DNA of 64,000 bases from Mytilus edulis (Eukaryota). Where the stretch lies: NCBI RefSeq assembly GCF_963676685.1, contig NC_092346.1, forward strand, positions 30,566,001 through 30,630,000. Reading direction: 5' to 3'. Positions 10,620 through 61,030 of this stretch are shown piece by piece. Under the pieces are notes generated by a model. The model ran no database searches, was not told the origin of the DNA, and saw nothing but the letters and a program-made list of their open reading frames with translations. The position numbers and the translations under genes are program-made. Positions within the stretch are counted from its first letter, which is position 1; every line of letters starts with the position of its first letter.

Positions 10620-10909
10620 AAGGAACAAAACATTGAGGAGCACTAATCTAGATTAAAAGATAAGGATTATCTTAATCCGATTGATTGCACAATGATGTGC
10701 TTAAAGGAACAAAAACATTGAGGAGCACTAATCTAGATTAAAAGATAAGGATTATCTTTATCCGATTGATTGCATAATAAGCTGCTTAAAGTTGCATCAT
10801 AAGCTGCTTTAAATCGTACCATAAGCTGGCTTAAGAAGATTAGAGGGGATTATAAGCTGGCTTAAGAAGATTAGAGGGGATTACAGGCTCCGTACTTGAG
10901 ATTACGGAG
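10620..10909. repeat. Polinton subterminal tandem repeats and hairpin
   Basis: ~85-bp unit x2, 31-bp unit ataagctggcttaagaagattagaggggatt x2, and stem-loop ctccgta-8nt-tacggag at 10888-10909. Confidence 0.75.
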
Positions 10910-18279: not shown

Positions 18280-19578
18280 TTCAGTTACTTTCCAAAGCTA
18301 TAGACGATTATCAACAAGAATCGTGCTTTCAGTTACATTCGAAAGCAATAGACGATTATCAACAAGAATCGTGCTTTCAGTTTCTTTCCAAAGCTATAGA
18401 CGATTATCAACAAGAACCGTGCTTTCAGTTACTTTCCAAAGCTATAGACGATTATCAAAAATAATCGTGCTTTCAGTTACTTTCCAAAGCTATAAACGAT
18501 TATCAAAAAGAATCGTGCTTTCGGTTACTTTCCAAAGCTATAGACGATTATCAACAAGAATCGTGCTTTCGGTTACTTTCCAAAGCTTTAGACGATTATC
18601 AACAAGAATCGTGCTTTCAGTTACTTTCCAAAGCTATAGACGATTATCTTATCAACAAGAATCATGCTTTCAGTTACATTCGAAAGCAATAGACGATTAT
18701 CAACAAGAATCGTGCTTTCAGTTTCTTTCTAACGCTATAGACGATAATCAACAAGAATCATGCTTTCAGTTACTTTCCAAAGCTATAAACGAGTATCAAA
18801 AAGAATCGTGCTTTCAGTTACTTTCCAAAGCTATAGACGATTATCAACAAGAATCGTGCTTTCGGTTACTTTCCAAAGCTATAGACGACTATCAACAAGA
18901 ATCGTGCTTTCAGTTTCTTTCCAAAGCTATAGACGATTATCAACAAGAATCGTTCTTTCAGGTACATTCGAAAGCAATAGACGATTATCAACAAGAATCG
19001 TGCTTTCAGTTTCTTTCCAAAGCTATAGACGATTATCAACAAGAATCGTGCTTTCAGTTACTTTCCAAAGCTATAAACGATTATCAAAAAGAATCGTGCT
19101 TTCAGTTACTTTCCAAAGCTATAAACGATTATCAAAAAGAATCGTGCTTTCAGTTACTTTCCAAAGCTATAGACGATTATCAACAAGAATCGTGCTTTCG
19201 GTTACTTTCCAAACCTTTAGACGATTATCAACAAGAATCGTGCTTTCAGTTACTTTCCAAAGCTATAGACGATTATCAAAAATAATCGTGCTTTCAGTTA
19301 CTTTCCAAAGCTATAAACGATTATCAAAAAGAATCGTGCTTTCAGTTACTTTCCAACGCTATAGACGATTATCAACAAGAATCATGCTTTCAGTTACTTT
19401 CCAAAGCTATAAACGATTATCAACAAGAATCGTGCTTTCAGTTTCTTTCCAAAGCTATACACGATTATCAACAAGAATCGTGCTTTCAGTTACTTTCCAA
19501 AGCTATAGACGATTATCAACAAGAATCGTACTTTCAGTTTCTTTCCAAAGCTATACACGATTATCAACAAGAATCGTA
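18280..19578. repeat. 48-bp minisatellite, ~27 copies
   Basis: Unit ttcagttactttccaaagctatagacgattatcaacaagaatcgtgct. Explains ORFs 18257..19285 and 18760..19644. Confidence 0.95.
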
Positions 19579-23487: not shown

Positions 23488-24518
23488 TTAGGAACTATTT
23501 CTACAGTCTTTCACACTACATACATTTGGAGGGCACGATTTTTTGGAACATATTTGAGAACACCATTCATCCATTCCATAAATATCTTCAAATGCTCCAA
23601 CGGCGTGGCATTTTGTTTTAGGGACTACAACAACATCATCACATCCACATTCACACATAAACTTGACACAGTGATTGGACCTGCAGTTGTTCAGACACCA
23701 TTGGTCAATGCCTCGAGTATGTGCATATCGACCTTTTGCTTTACACCGGAAATTTGGCGAAGTTGAGTAACATTCTCCATTTTTTGAAGTTAAAGGTTGG
23801 CTAGTTTGTGAAAACAAAGGATACGTTATCGAATCACTTTTACCCGGAAAATAGTAAATATCTGGTTGTGAAGGGACAAATCTAGTTAGAAGAAGATTTC
23901 CAGGCTTTGGTTTTATCAAAATTTTTGGCGTCGTTTTCGCCGCGATTTTTTCCCAAAAAGTTAACTCTTTTGAACTTCTCGATACTGTATTCCAAGTCGT
24001 CGAGGGTGACGATTCTTCAATTCTTTTGTCCCAAAATGATTTTTTCGTTTCTACATTCTTTTTACTTGGAGTAATTTTAAGGGGAAATGTCATGTTAGCT
24101 TGGAATTTGATGTATGGAATTCCCGTCTGCCATGAAGGTTTAATCCAATTCACATGTTCATGTTTCTCTTTGATATTAGATACATCATCATTCGAAACTT
24201 TCTTTGCAATGTCTTTGGTTTGTTGCAATTTGTCATTGTAAGAAGGTTTTGGCTTAGAGCTATCACCTTTGCGGATTTCATAAGCATTGGGACTATTGTA
24301 AACCGGCAAAGTCTGCCGAAAGCGTTCTATATTAGAATCGGTGAGATTTCTATCAGATATTAAAAATAATGGTTTATGTACATTAATTTCCGTGGAAATG
24401 AAAGCTCTATCACTGAATAAGGTATCCGACTGTATTTCGATATCAGCACAATTATAAAATGTTTCCTGCCTACCACAACCCATACACTGACATTCGTTGA
24501 TCCCTCCCATTCTATATC
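23488..24518 (-). CDS. AA15/LPMO-fold (chitin-binding type-4) secreted protein, exon 3
   Basis: tttgtag acceptor, phase 1. CMGCGRQETFYNCADIEI ends the LPMO domain, followed by a low-complexity linker and two Cys-rich modules (C-x-A-x-G...G-x-D-x-WC-x3-C...C). Confidence 0.85.
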
Positions 24519-26033
24519 CTACAAAGTATATAAACAATTATTAATGTGTTAATTGTGTTATTCATGAATCATATATCATTTATGGAATTCTTTTGATTAT
24601 TTTCTTAAAATGACCTTGACCAAGTCAGGAATATGGCAGTTGTTGTCATATATTCTGTCTCTATGTATGTTGCGTTTGTTAGCAGTTCTGTGTTTCTGTT
24701 CTTTTTTTTTTCTTATAATTAATGTGTTAGTTTGTGACACGGATTTGTTTTAGTTAAATCGATTTATGACTATTGAACAGCGGCATTGCCTCTATTTAAA
24801 CATGTAAAAATTCAAATGTCCCTAATCAAATGGCGGAATCAATAAAACACATCAAATGTATGGACAACAACTGTCATATTCGTGACTTGGTACAGGCATT
24901 GAAAAGCACTATATTGAAAACTATGGTACTGACAAACACTTTGCTCTCTGTGTTTATTTCAAACATCGTTGTCAATGTAGCTATAACACCAGGTTTAATC
25001 CACAATTTCTACATAAGAAAATGCCTCTGAACAAAGTCAAGAATATGAAAATTGTAATCCATTCGTTTGATGTGTTTGAGCGTTTGATTTTGCCAGTTGA
25101 TAAAAGATTATCAGTTTGGAATGTTCCTCGAAGTTTTGTTGTTTCTGTTATTTTACTTTTTTATATGATATAATTGAAAAGAAAATTAAATTAGAAACAA
25201 TACATTATCTTACGAAAAAAAAAAAAATTTCAATAGAACCATTTCATAACGATTATCACAAGTACATTTATTCCTTAAGTTCATATATTTTTTCTAGTTT
25301 AAGAATTTCATTAAAAAGCTTAAAGAGATATTGTAGTATTTCTGATCGATTTTCATTTAAAACAAAAAATCACGAGTTTTATGCTAATTCAAAATCGTAC
25401 TAGTTTAAAGATTTGTACAACAATACTGACAAGATTAATAGACTAAAAGTATTACAATTATTGGCGCAGAAAGACAAATATTTCGACTCAACAGTTGACC
25501 TTCATCACTTTAAAGATTTGCTAAATCATTAAATCAGCTACTATTATAGAAATTCAGATTTGAATGAAAAGTGATTTGCTAAATGATTTAATTATCAAAT
25601 AGAATACATATTAATTACACAGGGATACCAGTTTATTAATTCAAGTGCATGTCGTTGCATTTATAAAAATAAAACTTTCATCTAGTTACAGTCACGTATT
25701 GGTTGCTGATTCATGAGACGTAATTTAATTTATGCAAATTATAAGTAAAAAATGTGAACGCCATTTTTTGTTAGTACGATCTGCACAACTATTGTCATAT
25801 TAAACGTCCCAAACCATATGTATAATTATGTAAATCAAACAAATACAAACCGCAAGATAGACAAAAAACTTGTATCAGTCTGTGAATATATTTAAGAAAT
25901 GTGTAACCTTATATCTGAATAGTATGTTAAAAACTCATAATTGTTTTTCTCACTGAAGTCGGGGCTAATCATTGTAAGAGATATTGTTATAGCCCTTAAA
26001 CAAAACAAAAAAAAAACTCATCACAGATACAAG

Positions 26034-26289
26034 CATACCTGTCAACTGTCACTATTTGCGGGGGATTTCCTCCATGGAGGCTTCCAAATTGAAATTTTGA
26101 AAAAGCAATTTTGCCCACAATTTAAACAAAACAATTAATTTTACAATGACTTTAGGCTTTTAAAAGTATGAAGAAGGCAAAAAACAACATTAAAATGTAT
26201 TTGCAGGCCCCCTTGAAGGTTGTTTGGGACTATAACAGCCATCTTGCATGCAAAACCCCCATAGGCATTTTGAAAAGTTGGCAGGTATG
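26034..26289. mobile_element. MITE with CATACCTG TIRs and 6-bp TSD
   Basis: catacctgtcaact / agttggcaggtatg, with tacaag duplicated on both sides. Confidence 0.8.
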
Positions 26290-26481
26290 TACAAGGCTTA
26301 TATTTTGTTTCGCCGGATTAGTGTTTCGTCTTCATAAGACTAACCAATAAATAATGAAACCAAAAGAAGTGATGACTACTAAGCTGTAGATGCAATCGGG
26401 GACTAAATGTCTACTATCATATACATCGACCTAGTAAACTTCCGGTTTATCATTTGTGAATCTGCAAACTTTTATTTATAC

Positions 26482-26839
26482 CTGTGCTGAACTTCCACTG
26501 GAAAACACAATTCGTACATGAAATATCTGCTGGTAGACGCACGTGTAAATCGTAAATTCCACCTTGACTCCCAACATAGTAACGAGTACTCCAGGACTCT
26601 TCAATCCAAAGCATATTTCGCTCGAAGCAATCGTGGGTTAAAGTATCTTTTGAACCATTTCGTGGACAAAGACGAAATTCGAAAAAACCAAGGAGATTAC
26701 TTTTCACCTCAACTGTGACATTTACATAAGCTCCTTGTTTATATGACCTGACAGTCCTGTACTCTGCGCCATTCACCATAAGGCCATCAAAAGGTTGACC
26801 ACACACGCCACACATACCACCATTCTGCTCCCATTGTAC
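26482..26839 (-). CDS. AA15/LPMO-fold secreted protein, exon 2
   Basis: AG|VQWEQNGGMCGVCG...GFFEFRLCP...LPADISCTNCVFQWKFSTG|GT. Splice phases match exons 1 and 3 (524 aa in total). Confidence 0.88.
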
Positions 26840-27091
26840 CTTTAATAAAGTTTGATTTATAAGTATGTTTTAACTAATAGGGAAATACATATGTCATACA
26901 TTTGTATGTAAATAATGTTTAATAGTTTACGCTATCGTGTTATTTAGTCTAGTCTAACGTAAAATGATAAATGTCAACATGATAATAGGATAATAATGAT
27001 TAAATAATAATAATGATAATGATGATATGACAATAATGAACCATCACGATTATACTTGTTCTTATTTTTGATATTCTTATTACCATGATAA

Positions 27092-27257
27092 NNNNNNNNN
27101 NNNNNNNNNNNNNNNNNNNNNNNNNNNNNNNNNNNNNNNNNNNNNNNNNNNNNNNNNNNNNNNNNNNNNNNNNNNNNNNNNNNNNNNNNNNNNNNNNNNN
27201 NNNNNNNNNNNNNNNNNNNNNNNNNNNNNNNNNNNNNNNNNNNNNNNNNNNNNNNNN
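27092..27257. other. Assembly gap (N run)
   Basis: Run of N bases. Confidence 1.
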
Positions 27258-30200
27258 TCATCATTTTTTTTATTAACAGAAATGAAATGATAGTGATTAA
27301 TCATATAATAGAAATTTAAAAAGCCTTTTCCGTGGTAAGTTGATAAACAAATCATCTTCAGATATTTCTTTAATTATTACAGGTGAATAGAGTTTTCTAT
27401 GATTAGTAATGGCCATTATTTTCGCTTAATCGATTTATGACTATTGAACAGCGGTACACTACTGCTGCCTTTATTTAGCTCTTACACACCGGAATTCTTA
27501 AAACATTTATGAATAGGTTTGAAATTATGCCAGTAGCATGCTTCTTTTGTGTACTGCAAGTTTTAGCAACAAAATGGACTTATATGTTTTTAGTTTTTGA
27601 TGAGGTTCGTGTTGCTTATTCTTTGGTGTTCTATGTTGTGTCGTGTGTGCTGTTGTTTGTCTGTTTGTCTTTTTTCATTTTTGGCCATGGCGTTGTCGGT
27701 TTGTTTTCGATTTATGGGTTTGACTGTCCTTCTGGTGTCTTTCGTCCCTCTTTTATGAATGTTCACAGATTATTAGTATCGAAAAAAGAGAAGTGATAAG
27801 AATAAAGGAAAATTGTCTTAAAACAAATAAGAACCTAATATAGAATTGTCAATAGATACAAATAAAAAATTCTAAATAATGATAAATTGGCCTTTTTGCA
27901 CCGAATAACTTATTTTGTTTCATAGGTGTATATACAATTTATGAACATTTTAAGTATATTATTCAGACTGAATATAATATATTCAAAACATTTAAACACC
28001 TTTACGATGTTGACCATGTGATTGAAACAAATACAGGGGTACTGCCAAGACGAAACTATAAAAGATCTGGCATAGACACAAAATTCTCCAAATTACAAAA
28101 AAGCTTGTAACATATGATATATGACAACCACTGACAATGGACAGAACTAGGGACATGCATATGTTTATGTGACTGGTTTAAGAAAGTTTATAAAAGACCA
28201 AATAATAAAATAAGACTTACAATCATTCAAATCATAATCAAAGAAATTAAACTGCTGATATGAAACCATGCCGTTTTAACATTCTAATACCGGTTGATGT
28301 TTTTGATACATTTCGTACAAAACGTCATAAATAGTACAGGAAGATGCAATCTTGAACAATGCACATAACCAACACAAGCAAAATTTTAATGCAAAGAATA
28401 AATAAGAACTTCAATTATTTGCTTTAAACTCTTGAATTGCGAATTGATGATTATCCCCAAAAACACCAGAAGCATTGATAAAAACCAAATAAGTTCACCT
28501 AGTCGACATGGAAGATAACAAGTATAATACATAAACAAACTAGCTTTATTTATAATATACGCGTTAAAAAAAAACCTCATCAATGACATTTTTATCACTG
28601 TTGTAAAGTACTTCAAGTAATGAAAACATATTGTTCATTAAAATCATATGTCACTACAAAGAAAAATGCATTTAAAAGACAATAACCACAACAAAAAAAG
28701 TCATATCTACGATAAAAAAAAAAAGAAGCTTCAAGCTAGACACGTCAACATTCGTAAACAAACAACAAACAATGCCGATTTTACTATACGTTATGCTAAA
28801 CAAAAAGTACAGTGTTAAGTTGAATGTTCGATCTAAGTTATCAAAAAAGTATACAACATTGAAACCACAGTTTTAGTTTATTTTTGGCTCGACAAAAGAA
28901 GGCATCAATTGTTTTACTAACACCAACGTAAAATAATGGCGGCAAAAGTTAAGAATCAATGTCAGCATGACAATTATAAATGATATGTTAACAATATGGA
29001 AATCGTGTGTTTGTTCCTACTGTTTGTTTATTAAAAATCCCATGATTCATTGTGAAATGCATGTTCTTCTTCCATGATTCGAAACATATTAAATAACAGA
29101 CTCCGCTCAAGATAGACAGCAATGATTTAATTAGTGTCAGTTTCAAAATGAACGACTTGTCATCTGTGTCCATGATTACAAAAAAATCCCTTAAACTATG
29201 CAACCTGACATACGCACTTTAGTCAAGAGAAAGAAGGAAGATTTACTGTTATGTATTTTGTTCAGAGTAGCGTCTCTGTGCGCCCTGATATATGTCTGAT
29301 ACCTTCATATATTAATAATATTATTAATTATAATGATATTATTATAATAATAATGAAGATAATAATACTTATAATGGTTATAGGTTATTTCTTCAAAGAC
29401 AGAAAAAAATATTACAGTCATTCCTTAATGAAATTAGTATTTGGTCAAGGTTAAACTACATCGTTATTACAGACTGAACTTGAACTGTAATGCTTAACAT
29501 CATTAATAAAAATTAATGATGATTACTTAGTTGTACATGTACTACAGTACATGTATAAAGATTCTCTGTTGATATAAAACACATGCAACATTATAATTGT
29601 TTATTGTGCAACTTAGCGATTATTTTTCATGATAACTGATAAATTGGAATATAAATATCATCAAAATGAGTAGATAAATATAACATCTTTGTCGAACCGC
29701 ATTAAATATTTTGATTTGAAGAAAAAAAAGGACACACAAGGATACAACATCAACGTAATAGATTCATGCTTTTATTTGGGTTTTTTCCTTAAAACAATCA
29801 AAAGATTAATATCCTGGCTGATTTTGAAATATTTTCATAGTATAACGATTTGAACCATAAAAAAACCCAGTAAACTTTAACATTGCTTACATTAATTAAA
29901 ATCAATCTCTTAAAACCTTGCTATCGAAAATAGTTTTCACACGTTGTAAAAATATTTTTTTTACAATTTTAATGATTTCAGTATTTTTTAGCAATCTTCA
30001 ACATGATATTATTTTTTCATTGTTTTGCCTTGTTTTCTTGTATTATTTAGTATATAATTTATTGAATGTTTTTATTCACCATATATTATTCCATTAAATA
30101 ACATATGGAGGGGCAGGGTTTAGATTTTAAAAACAAGTTTAATTCTTTTTCTTTTCGTTAGAAGAAGTTGATGTTGGTTCCAGGTCTTTCCCTTTTTGTA

Positions 30201-33200
30201 TAGTGTTCAAACTGATATAACAAAATATTATAGATAAAGGTTTAAGTAAATTTAAAAAAATAAATAAAGGCAAGATCTACATACATCTATATAACTTACA
30301 ATTCACACTTCTAATCATTCTAGCAATTGGAGCCATGGGTTACAGTAGACATATGCCCTTTGCAATGTTTATCATTATGAAAAACATAACTTTTTAGTTT
30401 ACTTTTTTATTTCATGTTGGTATATTCATAAACTAACTATTTACAAAATTTGAATTATTCGAATTACTAAAGATTATCTTCAACAGGAATAGTTTACAGT
30501 AGCTGTATTTGGTAAAACTTTTCGATTTGTTTGCCCTTCTTTATGGTCTATGACTTCATATCTTATTTAGCCTTTTAACTTTTTTGATTCGAGCGGGGTA
30601 TCTTTGAATATGTTTTCATTAATAGTACATTTACTTAAGTGTCTCTGATGACAGTTTTCGGATTCCTTTTTTGTATTCTAATTTCTTTGTAAGCAACATA
30701 AGTACCTGTCCTTAACAAATCATATTAAACTAAACAAGGTTCTGATTTTATCCCTTTAAACTTTCATCTTTTAGTAATTGTGCAAGAAATTCATGTCTCT
30801 CTTATTTATTCCTGCATGTCATTATTATTGTTCTAAAGTACGAATCTTCAATACTTAAGTTATTTACCTGTTTGATTTAAATTTTTGAACTGTAATTAAC
30901 TTATATTGTAAACCACATAATAAGGTGTTCTACGTGGGTTTTTTTTGTACTTCCGTCATGCAAGATGGCATATTTAATTTGATTGCAGATAAGAATTTTT
31001 ATCAAAATTAATGATCAATTTTCTCAAGGTGTAACATTTTCATATATAATTAAACATGGTTGGGATCCTTTTGTGGATGTTTGTTATGTTTTCTTCTGGG
31101 GAAAAACTCAACCAGAAACAATTTTTTGACCGAGTTTGCATTGACATTTTTTGAAAGCAACTGGTCCTTGTCGATTTAGGAGTTCATACGGATTTAGATT
31201 TTTTTCTCTAGGTTTGCACAATCAAATGAACTTAAAATTCAATAAACTTTTGCTGTCTTTTTCTTCATTCATTTTCATTCATGACTAAATTCGTCCTTGA
31301 ACAATGTACAATGTATATGCAGCATGTTGAGTGTACATGATTACTGCTCATTTGAGGAGTTTTTGTTTTGTTTTATCTATGGTATCACCCTCTAAAATAC
31401 ATTCATTCAGTACCATGTCTGTATATAATCGAATAATGCAAAATAATACAACTTTAGATTCATGAGGATCATATAAAATACGTATTTTAACACCGGGGTC
31501 ATAAATTGATATATTTTGAATATGTTTAGTTGTCATGTATTATTTATAAACATTCGACACATTATATAAAAACATTCGAAGAAAGCCGATTTCCTTGTCT
31601 TTTACCCATCTGAATTTTGAAAAAATGTTTATGTGTTAAAGTGTATGTAATTGTCCTTTAAAGAGTGTATCTGCAATTATATTCGGTCTTCAAATATCCA
31701 GGAAATGGAGTTATAAGAGTTTATTTTTAAATATCAGAGGGGATGCTTAAGTTATCATGTGTAATGGAGTAACTATATTTGGGTCGAATGTATCACTAAT
31801 GAATTGCAATGTATGGCACCTGTTTGGTCTTTGTTGCCCAAAAACTATCAAACACGTATAATTATTTCGACAATGTTAGTACTCTATCGACCAAAAAAAG
31901 TTATCAACAAAACATCAAATCATTTGTGCAGTCTTTGTACAAATGTAGCTTTCTAGTATATCTAGCTGTGTCAAAAAATGTAATATGTAGTATATGTCAT
32001 CAGTTTTGTTTTAGCTTCATGTTGTGAAAAATTACCACATTTCATAAGGATTATAGAAGGAAAAGGCATTATTTTGTTAATAACAAGAAAAACTAAATGA
32101 CATTACCTTAAAATAATTTATGAAAAACAAAACAGGATTACACTGTTTCCTTGTTATATAGCAAATCGTTATTTGATCATTCCTTTGTAAAATTAAACTC
32201 CTTGAGTCCCAAAGTTTTAATAATTTCATATGAATTATACAAAATTCAGTGATGATAAAAACATTGCTCAAATCACGAAAACAATCAAGCGATTATTGAC
32301 TAGCGCATGGTTCATACCGCTGCTAGTATACTGTTGGTCACCGAAGTAACATTATCTCAGTAGTAAGTACTGACATGATTTAAAACATATTCTTAGTTAA
32401 AACACCCTACATAGATAAAGGCAACAGTAGTATACCGCTGTTCAAAACTCATAAATCCATGGACAAAAAACAAAATAGGGGTAACAAACTAAAACCGAGG
32501 GAAACGCATTAAATATAAGAGGAGAACAACGACATAACACCGAAACGTAACACACACAGAAACGGACCAAGCATCAGACAAAACACCACGAGAATAACAA
32601 ATATAACATGAAAACCAAATACATAGAAATTATAAATAGACTAAGGCCTTTCCTCCTTCAGGAAATGTTAACGGTTGATAAATTTTACTATTCTGTATTA
32701 TATTTAACTGTTCCCATATTATTTGGATTTGAAATACTGACAAAAATGTATAGTCCTAAAAATATTTGTCAATACAAATAGTTTAAAGCTGTTAGTTTGT
32801 ATCCATTTTCATCATTTTGCGACTGCACTTTAAAAACTGGCTTAAATTCCGTATGCGTTTTAATTCTTAAAATTTCATCTACATGACTAATGTTTACTTT
32901 AATGAAGGTATGTGTTTGATGTGGCACCTCAACTCATTAAACCTACTTACAAATTCGTACATTCTGTTTTATTATATAATGTTAAGAAGTACTATTGATA
33001 TAAAGCAACTTGTCAATGGCATCTGACGTATTTAATTGTAAAATAAAACTTTATATAACAGTTATGAATTCGTACGATCTGTATTATCTTATATTTTACG
33101 AAATATAACACTTAGTTACATTCTTTTGACAACATCTGAAATATTCTTATGCAAAATAGTTTTATATAACAATTATGATTTCGTACAATGTACGATCTGT

Positions 33201-33288
33201 ATTATTTTATATATCAAGAAATATAACACTAAGTAACATTCTCTTTGACAACATCTGACATATTCGTATGTAAAATAGCTTGTCTTAC

Positions 33289-33474
33289 CTCGTATCCCCC
33301 GCAGTTGAGCATATCGTCCTTTGTGTTAACAGGTACTGTTTTGTCATATCTCCATAAACTGGACCGATGCGGTGGTTCAATCATCATTGCTTTATTGTCA
33401 ACGCGTCGAATTAATAAGATAATTAATACTATATTCCATAATATCAAAGGCATTTCTATCACTATAGTAGTCAT
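33289..33474 (-). CDS. AA15/LPMO-fold secreted protein, exon 1 (signal peptide and N-terminus)
   Basis: Hydrophobic signal, then KAMMIEPPHRSSLWRY...LNCGGYE|gtaaga (phase 0). Confidence 0.85.
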
Positions 33475-42711: not shown

Positions 42712-43112
42712 TTTAAATTTGCTAGTATCTCAGTTATAAGTTTATTAAAATTTGCTAGCATCTCAGTTATAAGTATATTAAAATTTGCTAGTATCTCAGT
42801 TATAAGTATATTAAAATTTGCTAGCATCTCAGTTATAAGTATATTAAAATTTGCTAGCATCTCAGTTATAAGTATATCAAAATTTGCTAGCATCTCAGTT
42901 ATAAGTATATTGAAATTTGCTAGTATCTCAGTTATAAGTATATTAAAATTTGCTAGCATCTCAGTTATAAGTATATTAAAATTTGCTAGCATCTCAGTTA
43001 TAAGTATATTAAAATTTGCTAGCATCTCAGTTATAAGTATATTAAAATTTGCTAGCATCTCAGTTATAAGTATATTAAAATTTGCTAGTATCTCAGTTAT
43101 AAGTATATCAAA
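42712..43112. repeat. 33-bp minisatellite, ~12 copies
   Basis: Unit ttaaaatttgctagcatctcagttataagtata. Confidence 0.95.
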
Positions 43113-43186: not shown

Positions 43187-45914
43187 CTGTAACAAAAATA
43201 TTTATTTTCATAATCTTATGAAAAGGTTTTAAAAAAATATTTTTTTAGGAAGATGTCATTTGGGCAAAGACAATTCATCCAAAGACATCGGGAATAATAT
43301 GGTTTCTGAATTAATCAAACTATCGCCGGTCTTCCATGAAGTAATCAACTCCGAAGTAAGTAAATCCGCGGGAACAGTATGGTTTCTAAAGAAAAGATCG
43401 CCCCGGATACAGTACGGTTTCTGAAGTAAGAACAGGTTTTGACTTTTTCATAATCAAACGACATGATAGTTCCTTATTGTAATTAACTTCAATTTTGAAT
43501 ACTGTGGCTCTTTTTTATTTTATTATAAAAAGAATATGTGCCACATGACAACTCTCAACAAGAGACCCCATGACGCGGAAATTAACAACTGTAGGTTATC
43601 GTACGACATTCAACAATGAGTAAAACCCATACTGCATAGTCAGCTATAAAAGGTCCCGAAATGACAAATATAAAACAATTCAAACAAAAAAACTTTAGCG
43701 TTTAAATTAAGTATCAGAGTTTAAGTCGCCTAGGGCAGCAGTGAAGAGACATTTAAATTGTCGAACTGCGAATCTAGGGCAGTAAATTAATGCCGTTGTT
43801 GTTTTAATTCCATATAAAGATTAAGATGTCGATCTCGGTCAAAATAAAAGAGAAGAACTTGATTCGAAAACAGAATTGGTAAAACAATAAAAGAAGATAG
43901 AGTTCGAGAAGACTTTTAAAGCTTTTAAATCAAAGAAGGAATATTTGGAATAGCATTTCGGTAAAACAAATAGGTAAAATTTTTATACACCTTTTTTGAA
44001 TTTTGAGCAAACCGACAAATCACAAAAGAATTATCCCACTCTTGATTTCTAAATACGATTTTTTAAAGGATTTGAAAGTTTTACCTAGATTTTTTTCGAT
44101 TTAATACTTCGTTTTCAAACTAACTGTTTAAAACACCGATATAATCAGACCAACAATATATTTGGGGGTTTTATATAAACTATTAGCGTTTATTAATTAT
44201 TAATTATCTAATTTCTAACACAATTTTATATTAATATTCTTGTAATTCTTATAAAATACAACAAACTCATAGTTACAAACCTGAACTTGAACAGTATCCA
44301 ATTTTTTAGAAATTTACATGTGACGTCACTTTTGTGGCGTTGTGACTTTGATGGAGATTTGTCTCATTTGCACTCATACCACATCTTCTTATATCTATTG
44401 ACCCAGTCGTGTGAAGCCAGTTCATGGTTATGTTGTGCTGTTTTGTGTGCTGTCCTATGTTGTTTCATGTGTTCGTTTTTATTCTGTGTTTAGCATGTCG
44501 AAATGTACTATTGTATTGTTTATTGGTGTATTGATCTGTCCTGAATGTTCTTGTATTTATTTGTACTGTATTCCTGTCATGTGATGGGGCCATTTTAGTG
44601 TTATATTTAACATTGCCATCAAAAGTAAAATCACAAAAATACTGAACTCCATTGAAAAGAAAATCGGAAAGTCCCTAATCACATGGCAAAATTAAATGGC
44701 AATACACATAAAAAACGAATGGACAACAACTGTCGTATTCCTGACTTGGTAGAGGCATTTTCAAATGTAGAAAATGGTGGATTGAACCCGGTGTTATAGC
44801 GCTAAACCTCTCACTTTGTACGACAGTCTCATCAAATTCCGTTATATTTACAACGATGCGTGAACTAAACAGACACAATAAATAAAATAGTCAAAAATAT
44901 GGGTACATCAGTCGTCACCGTGTTACAATTTTACAAAAAACACAAAAGCATCAAACAAATAAAAACACAGTCATTGCTTCGCGTTTCTGACGTCAGAAAA
45001 TTTATACATCACATAGGAAGAAATTTTGTCGTTCAATGTATATACAAAATAATTTTATCATTTCACATGGGCATTGTTGGCATACAGGGTTTAAATCAAA
45101 AGTATGTTAGAATTAATTTCAGAAATAGACCGATATTTAAAACTGTCCAGAAGTTCTTTAGAATTGATAAGAATTCACAAGTGCAAGGTTTGGCTAGTCA
45201 CAGGTTCAACCCACCATTTTTCTTAAAATGTCCTGTACTAAGTCATGAAAATAGCAGTTATTATCTTATAGTTTCTCTGTGTGTTGCATTGTCACATGTA
45301 TTTTGTTCACTTCAGTGTTTCTGTTGTTTCGTTGTTCTCCTCTTATTGTTGATGTGTTTTCCTCGGTCTTAGTTTGTAACCCAGATTTATTTTTGTCTCA
45401 ATTTATTTATTTAGCGGTCTACTACGGTTGCCTTTACTTATGGAACATCGTAAAAGACCTTAAGTTAATCGTCAGTAAAATGGTATTGCATAAAACATGC
45501 AGGAAAATATCATAGATATTTACAATTTTCCCTATGTGTTACTGTTAAGGTCCTATAACTCTGGTAAGATATATCTGAAAATTTTGAAATTTTCACATTT
45601 ACTCATTCAAACAATATTGAATAATCTTTGATCCAAGCTACTCAATGATTAGTACAAAATGCAAATACAAAATTTAACCATAAAAGAGACGAGCAAAATG
45701 TTTGTCATCGTAAATAGCCTAAATAATAGTAAAGAGACTATATTTGTCAAACAACAGCGAATCTTACATAATCTTAATTCTGTCTCACACGAATGCTTGA
45801 ACAGCATTTAGGAAACTTCCTTTAAAAAACGCTTTACTGAATTAAAGATTCATGTTTCCTTTCTGGGTCATAATTGTTCATTGTTCTGATCTGTTACATT
45901 TTACTATAACTTAC

Positions 45915-48900
45915 CTCCATTGTTAACCTTTCGATACCCTGTAGACCCATAGTCATTTCCGTGACCTGAAGTAGTATGTGTGCTTTGAGATCCACCTAAG
46001 ATGTTGGATATTTGGCCGACCGAATTTCCTGTGTTGCTAGCGCTTGGTACAACTATAACCTTCTTAGATTTTTTATATCCGGAAGACCCATAGTCTTTTC
46101 CGTGACCAGACCACGGTGTATGTATGCTTTGAGATCCGCCTAAAATTGCGGCTATATGGTCAGCCGAATTTCCTGTGTTGCCAGAGTTAGATATTACAAC
46201 CTTTTTAGATTTCTTATATCCTGAAGACCCATAGTCTTTTCCTTGACCTGAAGATGTATGTGAGTTTTGGGATCCACCTAAAATTCCGGCTATAATTCGT
46301 GCCGAATGTACTGCGTTGCTAGTGTTCGGAACAACTATAACCTTCTTAGATTTTTTATATCCTGAAGACCCATAGTCTTTTCCGTGACCTGAAGATGTAT
46401 GTGAGTTTTGGGATCCACCTAAAATTCCGGCTATAATTCGTGCCGAATGTACTGCGTTGCTAGTGTTCGGAACAACTATAACCTTCTTAGATTTTTTATA
46501 TCCTGAAGACCCATAGTCGTTTCCGTGACCTGAAGATGTATGTGTGTTGTGAGATCCACCTAAAATTCCGGCTATAATTCGGGCCGAATGTACTGTGTTG
46601 CTAGTGTTCGGAACAACTGTAACCTTCTTAGATTTTTTATATCCTGAAGACCCATAGTCTTTTCCGTGACCTGAAGATGTATGTGTATTGTGAGATCCAC
46701 CTAAAATTCCGGCTATATGGTTAACTGAACTACCTGTGTTTCCAGAGTTTGATACAACTACAACTTTTTTATGTTTCTTATATCCTGAAGACCCATAGTC
46801 ATTCCCATAACCTGACGATGAATGTGTACCCTGGGATCCACCACCTAAGATTCCGGCTCGATTGCCGACTGAATTTCCTGTGCTTCCAGAGTGCGATACA
46901 ACTACAACTTTTTTTTTAGGTTTCTTATATCCTGAAGACCCATAGTCATTTCCATAACCTGACGATGTATGTGTCCCCTGAGATCCACCACCTAAGATTC
47001 CGGCTAGATTGCCGACTGAATTTCCTGTGCTTCCAGAGTTTGATACAACTACAACCTTTTTAGGTTTCTTATATCCTGAAGACCCATAGTCATTTCTATA
47101 ACCTGACGATGTATGTGTGCTTTGAGATCCACCTAAAATTCCGGCTATATGATTAACTGAACTACCTGTGTTTCCAGAGTTTGATACAACTACAACTTTT
47201 TTATGTTTCTTATATCCTGAAGACCCATAGTCATTCCCATAACCTGACGATGAATGTGTACCCTGAGATCCACCACCTAAGATTCTGGCTAGATTGCCGA
47301 CTGAATTTCCTGTGCTTCCAGAGTGCGATACAACTACAACTTTTTTAGGTTTCTTATATCCTGAAGACCCATAGTCATTTCCATAACCTGACGATGTATG
47401 TGTCCCCTGAGATCCACCACCTAAGATTCCGGCTAGATTGCCGACTGAATTTCCTGTGCTTCCAGAGTTTGATACAACTACAACCTTTTTAGGTTTCTTA
47501 TATCCTGAAGACCCATAGTCATTTCTATAACCTGACGATGTACGTGTGCTTTGAGATCCACCTAAAATTCCGGCTATATGGTTAACTGAACTACCTGTGT
47601 TTCCAGAGTTTGATTCAACTACACCTTTTTTAGGTTTCTTATATCCTGAAGACCCATAGTCATTCCCATAACCTGACGATGAATGTGTACCCTGAGATCC
47701 ACCACCTAAGATTCCGGCTAGATTGCCGACTGAATTTCCTGTGCTTCCAGAGTGCGATACAACTACAACTTTTTTAGGTTCCTTATATCCTGAAGACCCA
47801 TAGTCATTTCCATAACCTGACGATGTATGTGTGCTTTGAGATCCACCTAAAATACCGGCTATTTGGTTAACTGAATTTCCTCTGCTTCCAGAGTTCGATA
47901 CCACTACAACCTTTTTATGTTTCTTATATCCTGAAGGCCCATAGTCATTTCCATAACCTGACGATGTATGTGTACCCTGAGATCCACCACCTAAGATTCC
48001 GGCTAGATTGCCGACTGAATTTCCTGTGCTTCCAGAGTTTGATACAACTACAACCTTTTTAGGTTTCTTATATCCTGAAGACCCATAGTCATTTCCATAA
48101 CCTGACGATGTATGTGTGCTTTGAGATCCACCTAAAATACTGGCTATATGATTGACTGAATTTCCTGTGCTTCCAGAGTTCGATACAACTACAACCTTTT
48201 TATGTTTCTTATATCCTGAAGACCCATAGTCATTTCCATAACTTGAAGATGTATGTGTGCTTTGAGATCCACCTAAAATACCGGTTACATGGTTGACTGA
48301 ATTTCCTGTGTTTCCGGAGTTCGATACAACTACAACCTTTTTATGTTTCTTATATCCTGAAGACCCATAGTCATTTCCATAACCTGACGATGTATGTGTC
48401 CCCTGAGATCCACCACCTAAGATTCCGGCTAGATTGCCGACTGAATTGCCTGTGTTTCCAGAGTTTGATACAACTACAAGTTTTTTAGGTTTCTTATATC
48501 CTGAAGACCCATAGTCTTTTCCATAGCCTGAAGATGTATGTGTGTTTTGAGATCCACCTAAAATGTTAGATATGTGGCCGCCCGAATTTCCTGTGATGCT
48601 TGTGTTCGGTACCACAATAACCTTCTTAGATTTTCTATATCCAGAAGTGCCACAGTCATTTCCATGACCTGACAATATGTGTGTGCTTTGAGTTGCCCTT
48701 AAAATTCCGGCTATATGACCGACCGAATTTCCTGTGTTGCTTGTCCTTGGTACAACTACAACCTTCTTAGATTTCTTATATCCTGAAGACCCATAGTCTT
48801 TTCCATACCCTGCCGATGTATGTGAGTTTTGGGATCCACCTAAAATTCCGGCTATAATTCGGGCCGAATGTACTGTGTTGCTAGTATTCGGGACAACTAC

Positions 48901-51578
48901 AACGTTTTTATGTTCCTTATATCCTGAAGACCCATAGTCATTTCCATAACCTGAAGATTTATGTGTCACCTGAGATCCACCACCTAAGATTCCGGCTAGA
49001 TTATCGACTGAATTTCCTGTGCTTCCAGAATTTGATACACCTACAACTTTTTTATGTTTCTTATATCCTGAAGATCCATAGATATTTCCGTAAGCTGACG
49101 ACGTATGTGTACCTTGAGATCCACCACCTAAGATTCCGGCTATATGATCTACTGAATTTCCTGTTCCTCCAGAATTCGATCCAACTACAACGTTTTTAGG
49201 TTTCTTATATCCTGAAGACCCATAGTCATTTCCATAACCTGACGATGTATGTGTACCCTGAGATCCACCACCTAAGATTCCGGCTATATGGTTGACTGAA
49301 TTTCTTGTTCCTCCAGAATTCGATACAACTACAACCTTTTTATGTTTCTTATATCCTGAAGACCCATAATCATTTCCATAACCTGAAGATGTATGTGTCC
49401 CCTGAGATGCACCACCTAAGATTCCGGCTAGATTGCCGACTGAATTTCCTGTGCTTCCAGAGTTTGATACAACTACAACTTTTTTAGGTTTCTTATATCC
49501 TGAAGATCCATAGTCATTTCCATAACCTGACGATGTATGTGTACCCTGAGATCCACCACCTAAGATTCCGGCTAGATTGCCGACTGAATTTCCTGTGCTT
49601 CCAGAGTTTGATACAACTACAACCTTTTTAGGTTTCTTATATCCTGAAGACCCATAGTCATTTCCATAACCTGACGATGAATGTGTACCCTGAGATCCAC
49701 CACCTACGATTCCGGCTATATGGTTGACCGAATTTCCTGTTCCTCCAGAATTCGATACAACTACAACCTTTTTAGGTTTCTTATATCCTGAAGACCCATA
49801 GTCATTTCCATAACCTGACGATGTATGTGTACCCTGAGATCCACCACCTAAGATTCCGGCTATATGGTTGACTGAATTTCCTGTTCCTCCAGAATTCGAT
49901 ACAACTACAACCTTTTTATGTTTCTTATATCCTGAAGACCCATAATCATTTCCATAACCTGAAGGTGTATGTGTCCCCTGAGATCCACCACCTAAGATTC
50001 CGGCTAGATTGCCGACTGAATTTCCTGTGCTTCCAGAGTTTGATACAACTACAACTTTTTTAGGTTTCTTATATCCTGAAGATCCATAGTCATTTCCATA
50101 ACCTGACGATGTATGTGTACCCTGAGATCCACCACCTAAGATTCCGTCTAGATTGCCGACTGAATTTCCTGTGCTTCCAGAGTTTGATACAACTACAACC
50201 TTTTTAGGTTTCTTATATCCTGAAGACCCATAGTCATTTCCATAACCTGACGATGAATGTGTACCCTGAGATCCACCACCTAAGATTCCGGCTATATGGT
50301 TGACTGAATTTCCTGTTCCTCCAGAATTCGATACAACTACAACCTTTTTAGGTTTCTTATATCCTGAAGACCCATAGTCATTTCCATAACCTGACGATGT
50401 ATGTGTACCCTGAGATCCACCACCTGAGATTCCGGCTATATGGTTGACTGAATTTCCTGTTCCTCCAGAATTCGATACAACTACAACCTTTTTATGTTTC
50501 TTATATCCTGAAGACCCATAATCATTTCCATAACCTGAAGATGTATGTGTCCCCTGAGATCCACCACCTAAGATTCCGGCTAGATTGCCGACTGAATTTC
50601 CTGTGCTTCCAGAGTTTGATACAACTACAACTTTTTTAGGTTTCTTATATCCTGAAGATCCATAGTCATTTCCATAACCTGACGATGTATGTGTACCCTG
50701 AGATCCACCACCTAAGATTCCGGCTATATGATCTACTGAATTTCCTGTGCTTCCAGAGTTTGATACAACTACACCGTTTTTATGTTTCTTATATCCTGAA
50801 GACCCATAGTCATTTCCATAACCTGACGATGTATGTGTACCCTGAGATCCACCACCTAAGATTCCGGCTATATGGTTGACTGAATTTCCTGTTCCTCCAG
50901 AGTTCGATACAACTACACCGTTTTTATGTTTCTTGTATCCTGAAGACCCATAGTCATTTCCATAACCTGAAGATGTATGTGTTGCCTGAGATCCACCACC
51001 TAAGATTCCGGCTAGATTGCCTACTGAATTTTCTGTGCTTCCAGAGTGCGATACAACTACAACTTTTTTAGGTTTCTTATATCCTGAAGACCCATAGTCA
51101 TTTCCATAACCTGACGATGTATGTGTGGTTAGAGATCCACCACCTAAAATTCCGGCTATATGGTTGACCGAATTTCCTGTGTTTCCAGAGTGCGATACAA
51201 CTACAACCTTTTTCGATTTTTTATATCCTGAAGACCCATAGTCTTTTCTGTGACCGGACGATGTATGTGTGCTTTGAGATCCACCTAAAATTTCGGCTAT
51301 ATGGCTGACCGAATTTCCTGTGTTTCCATTACCTCCACTGTTTCCTGTTTTCCCGTAACTGTTATCGTAACCTGTTTTACCATAACCGTCACTGTATCCA
51401 TTTTTCCCGTAACTGTCATCATAAACTGTATTACTATAACCGTCACTGTATCCGTTTTTCCCTTTACTGTCACCGTGATCTGTTTTACCATGACCATGTG
51501 TCATTTTCCCGTAATGGTCATCGTATCCTGTTGGCGTACCATAACCATCGTTTGATTTGTAGTTTGGTATTAGAGATG
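45915..51578 (-). CDS. Giant secreted Gly/Ser/Lys/Tyr/His tandem-repeat protein, exon 2 (~38 repeats of ~48-49 aa)
   Basis: 5.6-kb open frame. Acceptor ttttttag at 51579-80 is in phase with exon 1. Ends at donor GAG|GTAAGT (45915), or at the stop at 45904 if unspliced. Indels between repeats are whole codons. Confidence 0.88.
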
Positions 51579-52468
51579 CTAAAAAAAATTATGAAATTTA
51601 TAAGATTCTTATTGAGTTTGGCCGTATAAATGCTGTGATTTTATGTTTGTATTGCTTGTCCTTAACTAATAAATGCGTTGTCATCTAATAACATCTATTT
51701 CAATATGTATAAATATAGTTCTTTAAGCCGGAATGTCATAAGCGGTTGATGCTGTGCTTCAAAATAATTCAAAAATATGGACTATCTGTTTTAAACTGTT
51801 GTATCTTTCGCCGTTTAAAATGTTACATTTCCTATTAGTTTTTTGTTTGTTTACTCTTTAAAATAATTTTGATAATAATAAGTTTAATTATCCTTTTAGA
51901 ACTTTACACATAAAGCTCTATCTACTATCTAAAATAAGCATTGAGTTCTGATACCGCGATAATGTCAGTTAGACCATGCGGATTCTTGGCGAGCGAGTCT
52001 GTAAGACTGTAACGCTACAATAGAGATTCAGGGGTAATTCGAGGATAAAAGATACTACAGATTTCTGATTATTTGTATGATTTCTGGAATATCAGATTAA
52101 GATTTGAACTGCAAATGGTTTTTTTTTTAAAGATTTTATCAGAATGTTCAAAATGTTTTTATTTCTAACAGGCCTAGTATTTCCGACAGAAAATATCGGC
52201 TATACATTTTATAATGGACGGCGGCCGGGCGCCCCTTTGCCAAACAGTATCTATGTATTAACTTGAAAATCTTTTCAAATATAAGGGTGTTCTTTCCTGT
52301 GACTTAATCACGGTCAAGTTCAATTTTCGCGATTTTAGCTTTTATCGTTGTTGAGTTGTAGAACTTTAAGATGCAAAAAGTGATAATTAGATTGATTTTA
52401 GCCTTTCCACTTCTGAACCCTGTATCGAATCGTTTATGTGTTTTACTTGATCCTGTTTAAGGGTCCTG

Positions 52469-52593
52469 TGCCCGTATGCACAAAGCTACTTAAGTAAAGA
52501 TTTGTTCCGAAAGGACGGATTTTTCAACATGTCTTACGATAAATTAGTACTACGATTGGATATCTTAACTTAGTGGTTTTACGCATACGGGCA
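52469..52593. mobile_element. Short MITE
   Basis: Inverted repeats tgcccgtatgc / gcatacgggca. Confidence 0.5.
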
Positions 52594-53777
52594 GATTTGT
52601 AAAAATCATTTTCACGCAGGACAATTCGGTTTGCTGTCAATCCTTTTGTTAAATATATATTTATAGTTCTAAGAAATCTAATTTCATAAGAATCTCTCTA
52701 AGATTTAGGAAGAATCAAACCTCGTTTTAATTTATATCAATAGCCCAAGTCGTATAGATATTTCAATATGGTCACATTTAAGATACCATGTTTCCTATAG
52801 ATATAGTCCTTAAAATTTAACCAGACGCTTTCTAAATCTTACGGTCCTACACTTTTCTTATTAAACTAAAGGAACCGCGTTGAATATAAAAAAAGAAGAT
52901 GTGTTATTATTAAGTCTATCAGCAGTCACAGTTTATAACAAATATGTTTGAAACATATAGCTGTAAAATATGGCTATACTAGTATACATATCAAAAACCA
53001 GTAATCAACTTATATTTTCCAGTATAATATATATATATGTAAAATACAAAGCTTAAAACAATTATACCTTTTGTTTTAAAACTATTTTTGTTTTGATCTT
53101 GGATCAATTATTTGGTTTATCGCTTATATACACTGGTGCAAAGGGGGCTGTTATGCTTAACATGCTTAAGTGGACATGCTCGTACACTGTGTTCCTATGT
53201 AAAAAAAAAAAAAAAAAAAAAAAAAAGTCAGCCGAGCGCGAACAGGTCTTGTTTTCTTTCTTGTTTAGTTCGAATCCAAAAAGAACCATGGTATAAATGT
53301 TAAAAACATACCTTAGACTTTTGGTTATTGAGATTTATTTCGGATTTAATTTGAACCACAGTAGACACAAACCAACTCTTACCCGTACGTGAGTACAGCA
53401 AGAACAAACCCAGAACTTATTACAAAAAAATGTAAACTAAAAGGACAAATCTAATGAAGAGAGTGTAGTTAATTTTGAACATGGAACGAACTTATACTTA
53501 TTTTCTTCGTAGATTCCTCTGCAATGGAGCACCCGCGTCACACGATAGTAAAATGTAAAAACATTATCTTTAGAAAAGTTTGTAAGGGGATATATTTACA
53601 GCAAGCTATTATTTATCTTTTTAGTATACTTTAAAACAACATTAGCTATGGTAAGTCAAATAAAAACGATGTTGATAAAAGAAAAACTAAAGTAAGTAAA
53701 ATTGGTGCTCAAGAATTTACAGTGGAAATATTTCCTGTAAAATTATACATGCGTAAAGATGTATCTTAAAACCTTAC

Positions 53778-53820
53778 CTGCACTTGCTGCAAGACATGTT
53801 GCTATAATTATTCGCCACAT
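53778..53820 (-). CDS. Repeat-protein gene exon 1 (signal peptide)
   Basis: accATG MWRIIIATCLAASA g|gtaagg, phase 1, joins to ASLIPNYKSNDGYG. Confidence 0.8.
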
Positions 53821-53855
53821 GGTCGACTGTGGTTCCGTTGATCAAGAAACCACTG

Positions 53856-53863
53856 TATTTATA
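53856..53863 (-). promoter_or_regulatory. Putative TATA box of the repeat-protein gene
   Basis: Minus-strand TATAAATA ~36 nt upstream of the ATG. Confidence 0.5.
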
Positions 53864-54494
53864 CCCAGGCACACCATTAGTTGAATACACCCCTACCATT
53901 ATATTACAATGCATTTGCAAATTATGTTTACTTTACAATGGGGTTTTTACTTAATAGGAAAAAATATGCATTTGCTTTCATAACCTGATTAGTTTTCGAT
54001 TACACTTCTTTTTTCCGCCAAATTATAAAATCTATATCACATATCATTAATATGTACTAAAATAAAATCATAGGAAATTGACCCTACCTATTTTTTTCTT
54101 GATGTAGCAAACTTTTATTTTACAATTTGTTTTCACTAAAAATATATTTCTTTTAGTGCGTCTTTTTAAAATTATCTATTATATTACAGGAACATTCTAG
54201 GGTAAATTGAAATATACCAATTTATACTAGTAGATACCTATTGGAATTTTGATTTGCATTGAATTTAAATAAGTAAAAATCTAAATTCCAATAACAACTA
54301 CTTGAACTAGATGATATTGGATTTAATATATATAAACTGTAAATTTAATTGAGAAAACTTACGGCGTTATCTATAATAAAACAATTTACAATTTTTTTTT
54401 AAAAAACATGACAGACCTCAACCAACAACAACAACTGATCTACAGGCTCCTGACTTGGGACAGTGACATAAAGAAGATGCGGGGTTAATAGATA

Positions 54495-54905
54495 TAGGAA
54501 GATGTGGTGTGAGTGCCAATGAGACAACTTTTTATCCAAATAACAATTTATAAAAGTAAACCATTATAGGTCAATGAACGCCCTTCAAAACGGAGCCTTG
54601 GCTCACACCGAACAACAAGCTATAAAGGGCCCCAAAATTACTAGTGTAAAACCATTCAAACGGGAAAACCAATTAACGGTCTAATCTATACAAAAAACGA
54701 GAAACGAGAAACACGTATAAATCACATAAACAAACGACAACTATTGTACATCAGATTCCTGACTTAGGACAGGTGCAAACATTTGCAGCGGGATTAAACG
54801 TTTTAATGGTACCAAACCTTCTCCCTTTTTCTGAAACAATAGTATAGCATCACAACATAGCAAAATACACGATAAAATATTAATTGAAAGGCTTAACTCA
54901 ATCAA
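54495..54905 (+). repeat. Abundant dispersed repeat family (aagatgtggt...ccaatgagacaact)
   Basis: Related copies at ~36885, 43535, 57550, 59040-59345 (minus) and 62390-63160. Confidence 0.6.
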
Positions 54906-55035
54906 AAAATGTAAATTAACACACAATGAACGAACACACAAAGAATGTTTATGAGTCTTCAACCCACCATTAACCTGTGTTACAGCACAACATAAAAACA
55001 AACTATAAAAGTTTAAAAGTCAGTCGAAAAGATCC

Positions 55036-60023: not shown

Positions 60024-60439
60024 TTATTGCGCTATGAGATAGCCAGAAAATGAACAATATAAGTCACTATCACTGTGAACAGTATAGCTACCACGAGACT
60101 TAACTGCAACTTGGTCTCCTTTCTTCAGATTTAGTACAATATTGTTTGTTCCTGTCTTATGTCTTGAACCTAGCAACCATGTGCTCTGTTGTTTGATATT
60201 ATTAAGGGAAAGGTAAACAATCAGGTATTTACCATCACCAGTAAAGACTGTATAAGAAAACTGATAAACTCCCGCAAGAGGTGCAGTAAAAATACCAGTG
60301 GTTGGATTGTAGCCATTTCGTATATTGGTGACAATTTTGTCAAACTTGATAGCATCATTAGTTCCAAGAGATTGTGGTTTAGTCAGCATTGATGAAAAGG
60401 CTGGGATTTTGTTCCTACTCAGACACTGACAGACATTGT
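60024..60439 (-). CDS. Secreted globular C1q-domain protein (C1qDC), exon 3
   Basis: PAFS...IKFDKIVTNIRNGYNPTTGIFTAPLAGVYQFS...VLNLKKGDQVAV...SFSGYLI; ttttag acceptor, phase 1. Confidence 0.93.
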
Positions 60440-61030
60440 CTAAAATAAAAAGAAAACAATTTGGCACATTGAAAATTATCAGCATTGCTTAAATTGTTTA
60501 CCTATTTAAGAAGAATACTATTATCGTCAATATTATTTAGGCTTTCATTTATATATATATATATCAACTCTCATGATAGAACTATGGTTGATTGGGTAAA
60601 AAAAAGAAAGAAATTATCATAAAAAACAAAAATGGAGTATAAAGAGAGATAACATGCTGCATGAATGTGAAATCAAAAATGTAGTGAATTAATTAATGAT
60701 ATTTAAAATTGTTTGCATTCTACTAGCAATAAAATGAGCAAGCTTCGTTAAACATAGAGTTTTTTTAAAGGACATTTGCTGCTCTTTTTAAAAATAAAAA
60801 GCTTTTTAAAGGATTGAGATAAATTAATAGTATATAAATTACGAAATGAAAAAAGCAAAAAAAATAAAAAGAATATGAAAAATACATGTCCTTGTTTTTA
60901 AGATATAAGCATTGAAAGTTTGTCGGGAAATTATTCTACAGAAGGGAAAATTTTATGCATTTTTACTGCGCCTAAATTGTACAATTGCAATAAAATATTA
61001 ATTATGAAACTTTTTAAGTATGAAACTTAC

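Follow-up and report, generated by a model that had tools for sequence, protein, structure and literature searches.

The window analyzed here is a stretch of 64,000 nucleotides of Mytilus edulis DNA (NCBI RefSeq assembly GCF_963676685.1, contig NC_092346.1, positions 30,566,001 to 30,630,000 of the forward strand), and all coordinates below are positions within it. Its main feature is a two-exon minus-strand Mytilus gene with an ATG at 53820, a GT-AG intron from 53777 to 51579 and a stop codon at 45904, whose product has 1,905 residues and a single stop and is dominated by a tandem array of units of about 48 residues. An initial annotation, made from the letters alone, had proposed a secreted repeat protein of about 1,900 residues here; the length and a hydrophobic leader are borne out, on the minus strand, and the array was correctly placed, whereas the given boundary of 45915 leaves the stop codon (45904-45906) just outside. 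Sequencing runs were used to examine the gene model: 20 of the 24 listed contain part of the stretch, with seven studies and two organisms represented, and 14 are guessed to be RNA, none being recorded as such. Contigs were compared over 51200-55000 only, from upstream of the gene to the beginning of the array, in four of these 20 runs (X1, X5, X9 and X18), three of which are guessed to be RNA. The parts of the gene, in the direction of transcription, are as follows.

53856..53863, minus strand: candidate TATA box, about 35 nucleotides 5' of the ATG, read from the sequence and with a presumed function
53778..53820, minus strand: coding part of exon 1 (43 nucleotides), with the ATG and the predicted signal peptide, encoding residues 1-14 and the first base of codon 15; inside spliced contigs of X1 and X5
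51579..53777, minus strand: phase-1 GT-AG intron of 2,199 nucleotides; the joint 51578/53778 is found in X1 and X5
51244..51578, minus strand: start of exon 2, encoding the 111-residue head, from the sequence and with cover in X1, X5, X9 and X18
45955..51243, minus strand: array of 37 units of 47-49 residues and three types, from the translation and unit alignment
48517..48939, minus strand: first P-type block, units 17-19, which contains the single Cys of the array
45955..46659, minus strand: second divergent block, units 33-37, four of them P-type
45904..45954, minus strand: partial last unit (16 residues) and TAA stop
45386..45411, minus strand: nearest AATAAA pair, a putative polyadenylation signal about 500 nucleotides 3' of the stop, read from the sequence

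The minus-strand open frame runs from 51588 to 45904 (1,894 codons), and exon 2, a 5.67-kb open exon, is joined to exon 1 in phase 1. The exact splice joint between 51578 and 53778 is found in contigs of X1 (study P1) and X5 (study P2), that is, in two of the three RNA-guessed runs compared, and the contigs of X9 contain exon 2 only, without the joint. In all three of these runs cover is absent from 51581 to 52215, just past exon 2 into the intron. X18, which is from the second organism, has cover on the intron as well as on the exon and so behaves like a DNA run; the locus is thus present in the second organism as well, which in this one low-depth run differs from the stretch at two positions in the first 354 nucleotides of exon 2 and the intron edge and, in pieces of the intron, at 4 of 139 and 15 of about 350 positions. 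The gene is transcribed and spliced, a conclusion that follows from the exact splice joint and not from the RNA label of the runs. Summed contig depth, which is no measure of expression, is higher over the repeat than over the unique head, by a factor of about 60 to 400 in the runs guessed to be RNA and of 8 in X18.

Two loose ends were seen in X1. At 51288 a contig departs from the stretch with a 54-nucleotide end that reads as a variant of the unit and whose first 16 bases are absent from the window; an allele with other units or a paralog are the suggested alternatives. At 53816 the spliced contig carries 26 foreign 5' bases, read by hand as a Gly/Leu/Pro-rich stretch, which probably result from a chimera formed in the library with a second Gly-rich structural transcript from that sample.

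The array is a gene and not a satellite or a chance open frame, because the other five frames contain 58-173 stops, the units are 141, 144 or 147 nucleotides long (all multiples of three), variant bases fall on the three codon positions as 37/36/57 (third-position excess, binomial p = 0.008), the ratio of nonsynonymous to synonymous variation (pN/pS) within the unit is 0.50, and some 130 random changes without any stop would be expected with a probability of about 2e-4. The unit is under moderate purifying selection. The 48-bp array at 18276-19577 served as a control, and there the variation by codon position is flat (27/26/21), with one frame-breaking step.

The predicted signal peptide is a 14-residue hydrophobic leader (mean Kyte-Doolittle hydropathy of 2.3 over residues 4-14), recognized by eye and by hydropathy. 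The head of 111 residues is rich in Gly, Ser, Tyr, Asp, Asn, Lys and His and consists of micro-repeats of 9 or 18 residues and a partial unit, in keeping with the short Gly/Tyr/Lys/Asp repeats that had been noticed after the leader. The array proper has 37 full units (22 of 48 residues, 14 of 47 and one of 49) with a partial unit at each end, and Tandem Repeats Finder reports a 144-bp period with 37.8 copies and 87% identity, so the earlier count of about 38 stands. Each unit runs from a Tyr/Gly/Ser block through KK(P/H/S)KK, a Val run and a Ser/Gly/Asn spacer to a V-x-x-(I/L)-A-G-I-L segment and a Thr-His linker. The mature chain has one Cys, which is the only one of the array, as had been claimed (residue 990 in unit 19, from a single TAT-to-TGT change), and another lies in the leader. 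Three unit types can be told apart: 16 H-type units ((N/D/G)-H-I) and 14 L-type units (G-N-L), both seen before, and seven P-type units, in which Pro follows the Val run and the spacer is different; this last type had been missed by the initial annotation.

The P-type units are units 17-19, 33-35 and 37 and close each half of the array. In a FastTree tree built without a support test, units 17 and 19 group with units 33-35 and 37. Because the P-type closes both halves and these units group together, the sequences suggest an old doubling of the array followed by homogenization. Mean unit identity is nearly constant with distance (0.86-0.89), so a strict higher-order repeat is absent. Outside the array, a second copy of the unit was found nowhere in the window.

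The mature chain has a mass of 187.6 kDa and a pI of 9.86, and its main residues are, in percent, Gly 21, Ser 18, Val 9, Lys 8, Asn 8, Thr 6, Tyr 6 and His 5. Exon 2 encodes 117 Tyr, and a unit has about three Tyr, four Lys, two His and one Asp. The net charge is +206 at pH 5 and +116 at pH 8, or, for each unit, +5.2 and +3.3. Within the unit, beta propensity and hydropathy both peak in the Val run. There are 37 YK pairs, roughly one for each unit, and 34 occurrences of [GS]Y[GS]. With Ser and Thr together at 25%, a long tandem array and presence in RNA-guessed runs of five studies, the protein could be taken for a mucus or gel protein that is O-glycosylated on its Ser/Thr spacers and does not harden. 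Its Pro content is only 1.5%, Cys-rich vWD or cystine-knot ends are missing from a mature chain with one Cys, and the chain is strongly basic and carries hydrophobic blocks and Tyr, all of which makes this the least probable of the explanations weighed here.

The 68 KK pairs, the KK(P/H/S)KK motif of 31 units and the peptide-sized, net positive units recall instead a polyprotein that is cut at its basic clusters into about 37 cationic peptides with antimicrobial or signaling roles, and cleavage at KK had indeed been raised in the initial annotation. Prohormone convertases and furin favor Arg at P1, and Pro or a beta-branched residue at P1' is disfavored. The protein has no KR, RR or RxxR and no Gly-dibasic amidation signal, and the residue after KK is Val in 31 cases, Pro in 16, His in 11, Ser in 7 and Leu and Gly in one each, the first four accounting for 65 of 67 cases. 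The earlier suggestion is thus not upheld, and we consider a polyprotein very unlikely.

No homolog was found by word-index searches with the whole protein (lengths 1041-3315, best 7,999 candidates scored), with its first 292 residues (lengths 160-511, best 7,998 candidates scored) or with two units (lengths 169-2000, 4,307 candidates). An exhaustive phmmer search of 1.84 billion representatives gave two matches, both spurious: an abalone P450 model into which a 9-residue repeat is inserted, and what by eye looks like a fibronectin-III-like repeat protein. In a phmmer control at a database size of 5.8 billion, a 300-residue copy with 60% of its positions redrawn was detected at an E-value of 1e-21. 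Exact look-up of two single-exon versions of the protein showed them to be absent from the protein collection. There was no Pfam family at an E-value of 0.01; at 10 there were 34 weak families, scattered chance matches, and the 25 of these that were shown included no curlin or Fap family. Among PDB sequences nothing fell below an E-value of 0.5, the nearest being an antibody chain at 0.57. The ESM Atlas gave no usable match for residues 5-300 and at best 0.76, below chance level, for residues 250-1000, and none of 466 and 90 pattern matches in metagenome contigs was confirmed. A literature search with five diagnostic motifs found no relevant paper and one unrelated one, sequences printed in figures and some byssus and foot-gland proteomes being outside its reach. 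The protein collection contains NCBI and UniRef proteins of four Mytilus species as well as repeat-laden proteins, yet no match was found, so the gene seems to be unannotated as a protein, unless a filter in the collection removed it. Three of seven neighboring open reading frames (ORFs) are present exactly in the same collection, and two clusters at 90% contain named proteins of M. galloprovincialis, M. edulis, M. trossulus and M. coruscus, in agreement with the mussel origin assumed at the outset. The initial annotation was to be given up if the protein proved identical to a characterized one or if expression was lacking; protein searches found no such identity and no match to the mussel foot proteins (mfps) mfp-1 to mfp-15, and spliced contigs came from two studies. 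A Mytilisepta gill 'glycine-rich secreted protein' was rejected as a candidate, its primers translating by hand as collagen-like (PMC5549309), and identity with mefp-12 was rejected on architecture (PMC13022425).

In the four-unit and eight-unit fragments modeled with AlphaFold2, the same four-strand pattern per unit recurs, which raises the alternative of a curli-like functional amyloid: the 48-residue unit would form two beta-arch rungs of a long beta-solenoid that stacks end to end, with rows of Tyr, Lys and His facing outward. The four-unit model matches Escherichia coli CsgA best (Z 10.3, root-mean-square deviation (rmsd) 8.6, 92 aligned), and FapC is the top Foldseek match, which is not significant (E 0.087); the eight-unit model aligns with beta-helices of the Suf type (Z 16.0, rmsd 4.2, 243 aligned) as well as with Pontibacter CsgA (Z 14.7, rmsd 9.1, 191 aligned). 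Other beta-helices were also among the fold matches. Indels and the 27 prolines all lie outside the Val run and segment 26-34 of the unit, a further point in its favor. The models, however, reach a predicted local distance difference test score (pLDDT) of only 46.8 (four units) and 40.9 (eight units) with no residue above 70, so that confidence falls as units are added, the other four models score 21-36, and the underlying alignments are the protein's own repeats. AlphaFold2 makes solenoids of 32 of 78 (41%) random repeat sequences (bioRxiv 10.1101/2024.10.30.621056). Moreover, the halves of the unit have no similarity to each other (no peak at lag 24), segment 25-33, a predicted strand, has helical periodicity (helical hydrophobic moment of 0.39 vs. 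0.16 for a strand), and Pfam yields no family at the stricter threshold. The solenoid may therefore be a repeat artefact of AlphaFold2 and is a lead only, and we judge a curli-like amyloid unlikely. Slightly less likely still is its extension to a natural mussel glue or fiber, in which a 188-kDa solenoid chain would stack into fibrils with rows of 3,4-dihydroxyphenylalanine (DOPA), Lys and His; in nature, such a material would correspond to the engineered CsgA-Mfp fusion adhesive. As between mussels and barnacles, a 2025 review (PMC12472103) states that reports of amyloid-like adhesive structures exist for the latter only.

A role like that of the mfps, as a byssal adhesive or interface protein acting mainly through DOPA-Lys surface binding, is improbable to a similar degree. 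It would suit the basic pI, the high Gly content and the YK pair of nearly every unit, as found for mfp-3 and mfp-5 (PMC9999432), and such a protein could be missed by standard proteomics, as 51% of the residues lie in tryptic peptides longer than 35 residues and 27% in peptides of 7-30; these over-long peptides could also explain the absence of the protein from proteomes. The named mfps, however, are of 4-110 kDa and have GenBank entries (PMC9999432, PMC13022425), yet none matched; the top His-staining band of plaque vesicles has been assigned to mefp-12, a coiled-coil and zinc-finger protein of 88 kDa (PMC13022425); and the unit has two hydrophobic blocks. Of the 'structural or adhesive' material of the initial annotation, the structural part is the stronger, and the adhesive part is weakened by the Tyr content of 6% and a mass about twice that of the largest named foot protein. 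Its further suggestions of self-assembly or coacervation, DOPA, metal binding and a connection to byssus or periostracum are plausible.

On balance, and by analogy with known materials, we think it probable that the gene encodes a lineage-specific secreted structural protein of Mytilus, a disordered polycationic multiblock polymer of the sticker-and-spacer kind that would condense on secretion and be hardened by tanning of Tyr/DOPA with Lys and His. Before secretion the chains would be soluble and for the most part disordered, kept in acidic vesicles at a charge of about +5 per unit. Upon release into seawater they would condense because the His lose their charge, which leaves each unit at about +3, and because the Lys clusters are screened by salt. 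Each unit would then offer three stickers, its Val run, its short amphipathic segment and its Tyr flanked by Gly/Ser, to bring numerous chains together in a dense phase or a network rich in beta structure that the Gly/Ser/Asn spacers would keep extensible, and tyrosinase or peroxidase chemistry would cross-link Tyr/DOPA to nearby Lys and His to give an insoluble tanned matrix. Precedents exist for several of these features. Mussel foot proteins are Gly-rich, basic and disordered, are secreted as coacervates and are cured via dopaquinone adducts with Lys and His (PMC9999432); KRMP-3 of the insoluble shell matrix has a chitin-binding Gly/Tyr region and a Lys-rich region (PMC4498902); and a Perna shell protein has a C-terminal Gly/Tyr block followed by YKK (PMC6641155). 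As for the site, the organic shell layers made by the mantle (periostracum, framework, ligament) are our tentative first choice; the foot and byssus are a more doubtful one, and so, equally, is another site such as gill, mucus or a larval or gamete coat.

Several observations weigh against the tanned matrix protein. The storage, condensation and tanning steps are drawn by analogy from mfps, KRMP and suckerins, the searches found no homolog of known function, and the RNA status of the sequencing runs is only guessed. FoldIndex is -0.02 for the whole chain, which is borderline and not clearly disordered (-0.24 for the head), and the best AlphaFold2 model is a regular beta-solenoid for both fragments. 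Tyr at 6% is low against the 10-30 mol% DOPA of mfp-3 and mfp-5, which act as adhesive primers (PMC13022425), and of the five motifs tested only the generic GYKK was found in the available rows of the Perna shell proteome (PMC6641155).

Elsewhere in the window, a Polinton/Maverick-like element occupies 39-10630, with inverted arms of about 1.6 kb at 88-97%. At about 10.6 kb it is short for its class. Its ORFs include the following.

1624-2340, minus strand: A32-like ATPase
5180-6316, plus strand: integrase-chromodomain ORF
7020-8453, plus strand: ORF in an 'F54H12.2-like' cluster, which we take to be capsid-like

A gene for a predicted secreted lytic polysaccharide monooxygenase (LPMO) lies at 23488-33474 on the minus strand. 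Its match to Pfam LPMO_10, at 26450-26869, has an E-value of 1.6e-9, and it includes a tail exon rich in Cys (23488-24537), a probable first exon near 33229-33474 and an assembly gap of N at 27092-27257; a link of the repeat protein to chitin through this gene, 12 kb away, was considered too weak and was not used. A C1q-domain exon (E 3e-25) lies at 60024-60488 on the minus strand, and a simple scan found no leader exon for it up to 64000. The 48-bp array at 18276-19577 has 27 copies and long open frames on the plus strand and is, because of its flat variation and frame-breaking step, a non-coding minisatellite; a 33-bp array at 42715-43112 (12 copies, 96% identity), open in one frame per strand and with too little variation to test, is probably non-coding as well. 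At 54400-54900, about 600 nucleotides upstream of the gene, there is a very high-copy interspersed repeat, with a summed contig depth in X18 of up to 356,000 vs. about 4.5 for unique DNA, which presumably resembles a known Mytilus mobile repeat.

Mussel materials rank with the best-studied bio-inspired glues and coatings, and here a transcribed and presumably secreted 188-kDa protein is absent from a collection that covers four Mytilus species; it, and others like it, may have gone unnoticed because of repeat masking and over-long tryptic peptides. Molluscs commonly have low-complexity secreted proteins that are specific to one lineage. Little is said to be known of what makes up the solid plaque scaffold (PMC13022425), and many shell-repair genes of Mytilus encode unknown disordered proteins, 91 in one study (PMC8194122). 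The 48-residue unit can be synthesized, so that its assembly, tanning and fold are directly testable, and it offers a new design for protein materials.

Among known systems, the KRMP and shematrin proteins of the shell framework are likewise secreted and basic with a Gly/Tyr block beside a Lys cluster, and quinone tanning and a beta-sheet framework have been proposed for them; expression at the mantle edge, residence in the insoluble shell matrix and binding of chitin also characterize them (PMC4498902, PMC4521380). Their hallmark, a Gly/Tyr-rich and a Lys-rich region, recurs in miniature in each unit of the repeat protein. They differ in that there is no sequence match and that they are small, with one module each, whereas the repeat protein has 1,905 residues and 37 units that add Val-rich and amphipathic blocks. 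The closest echo is Unigene1265 of Perna viridis (about 110 residues), which ends in a Gly/Tyr block with YKK, also without a sequence match (PMC6641155).

The named foot and byssus proteins (mfp-1 to -15, preCol, TMP) show no homology to the repeat protein, although it shares their traits of being secreted, basic, Gly-rich and largely disordered, the disorder of the array being borderline. Like it, mfp-4 is a tandem repeat protein. The same holds for mfp-1, and mfp-1 to -15 and TMP-1 come from the same genus, are secreted with a pI above 8 and are Gly-rich with Tyr-Lys pairs and His (PMC9999432); they differ in having 4-110 kDa rather than 188 kDa and in lacking a 48-residue multiblock unit (PMC9999432, PMC13022425). 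In mefp-12 there is another large, basic, His-bearing Mytilus protein, a peptide of which undergoes pH-triggered phase separation, but its 88 kDa include a 129-residue coiled coil and six Cys/His zinc-finger-like domains that the repeat protein does not have (PMC13022425).

CsgA and FapC, the top matches of the low-confidence model, are similarly secreted and built of Gly/Ser/Asn-rich repeats, but there is no sequence-family match and the structural alignments have 6-13% identity. Squid suckerins have Ala/His blocks, where the mussel protein has Lys clusters and Val runs; they have no homology to the mussel protein, and suckerin-19 has 39 kDa. Suckerins do share the block-copolymer design and show pH- and salt-dependent beta-sheet assembly and Tyr cross-linking (PMC9999432). 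With its predicted signal peptide, low-complexity repeats, lineage restriction and absence of known domains, the repeat protein has the features of the molluscan class of secreted proteins with repetitive low-complexity domains (RLCDs) (PMC8194122, PMC4498902). While in no named family, it is most like the secreted low-complexity matrix proteins of bivalves.

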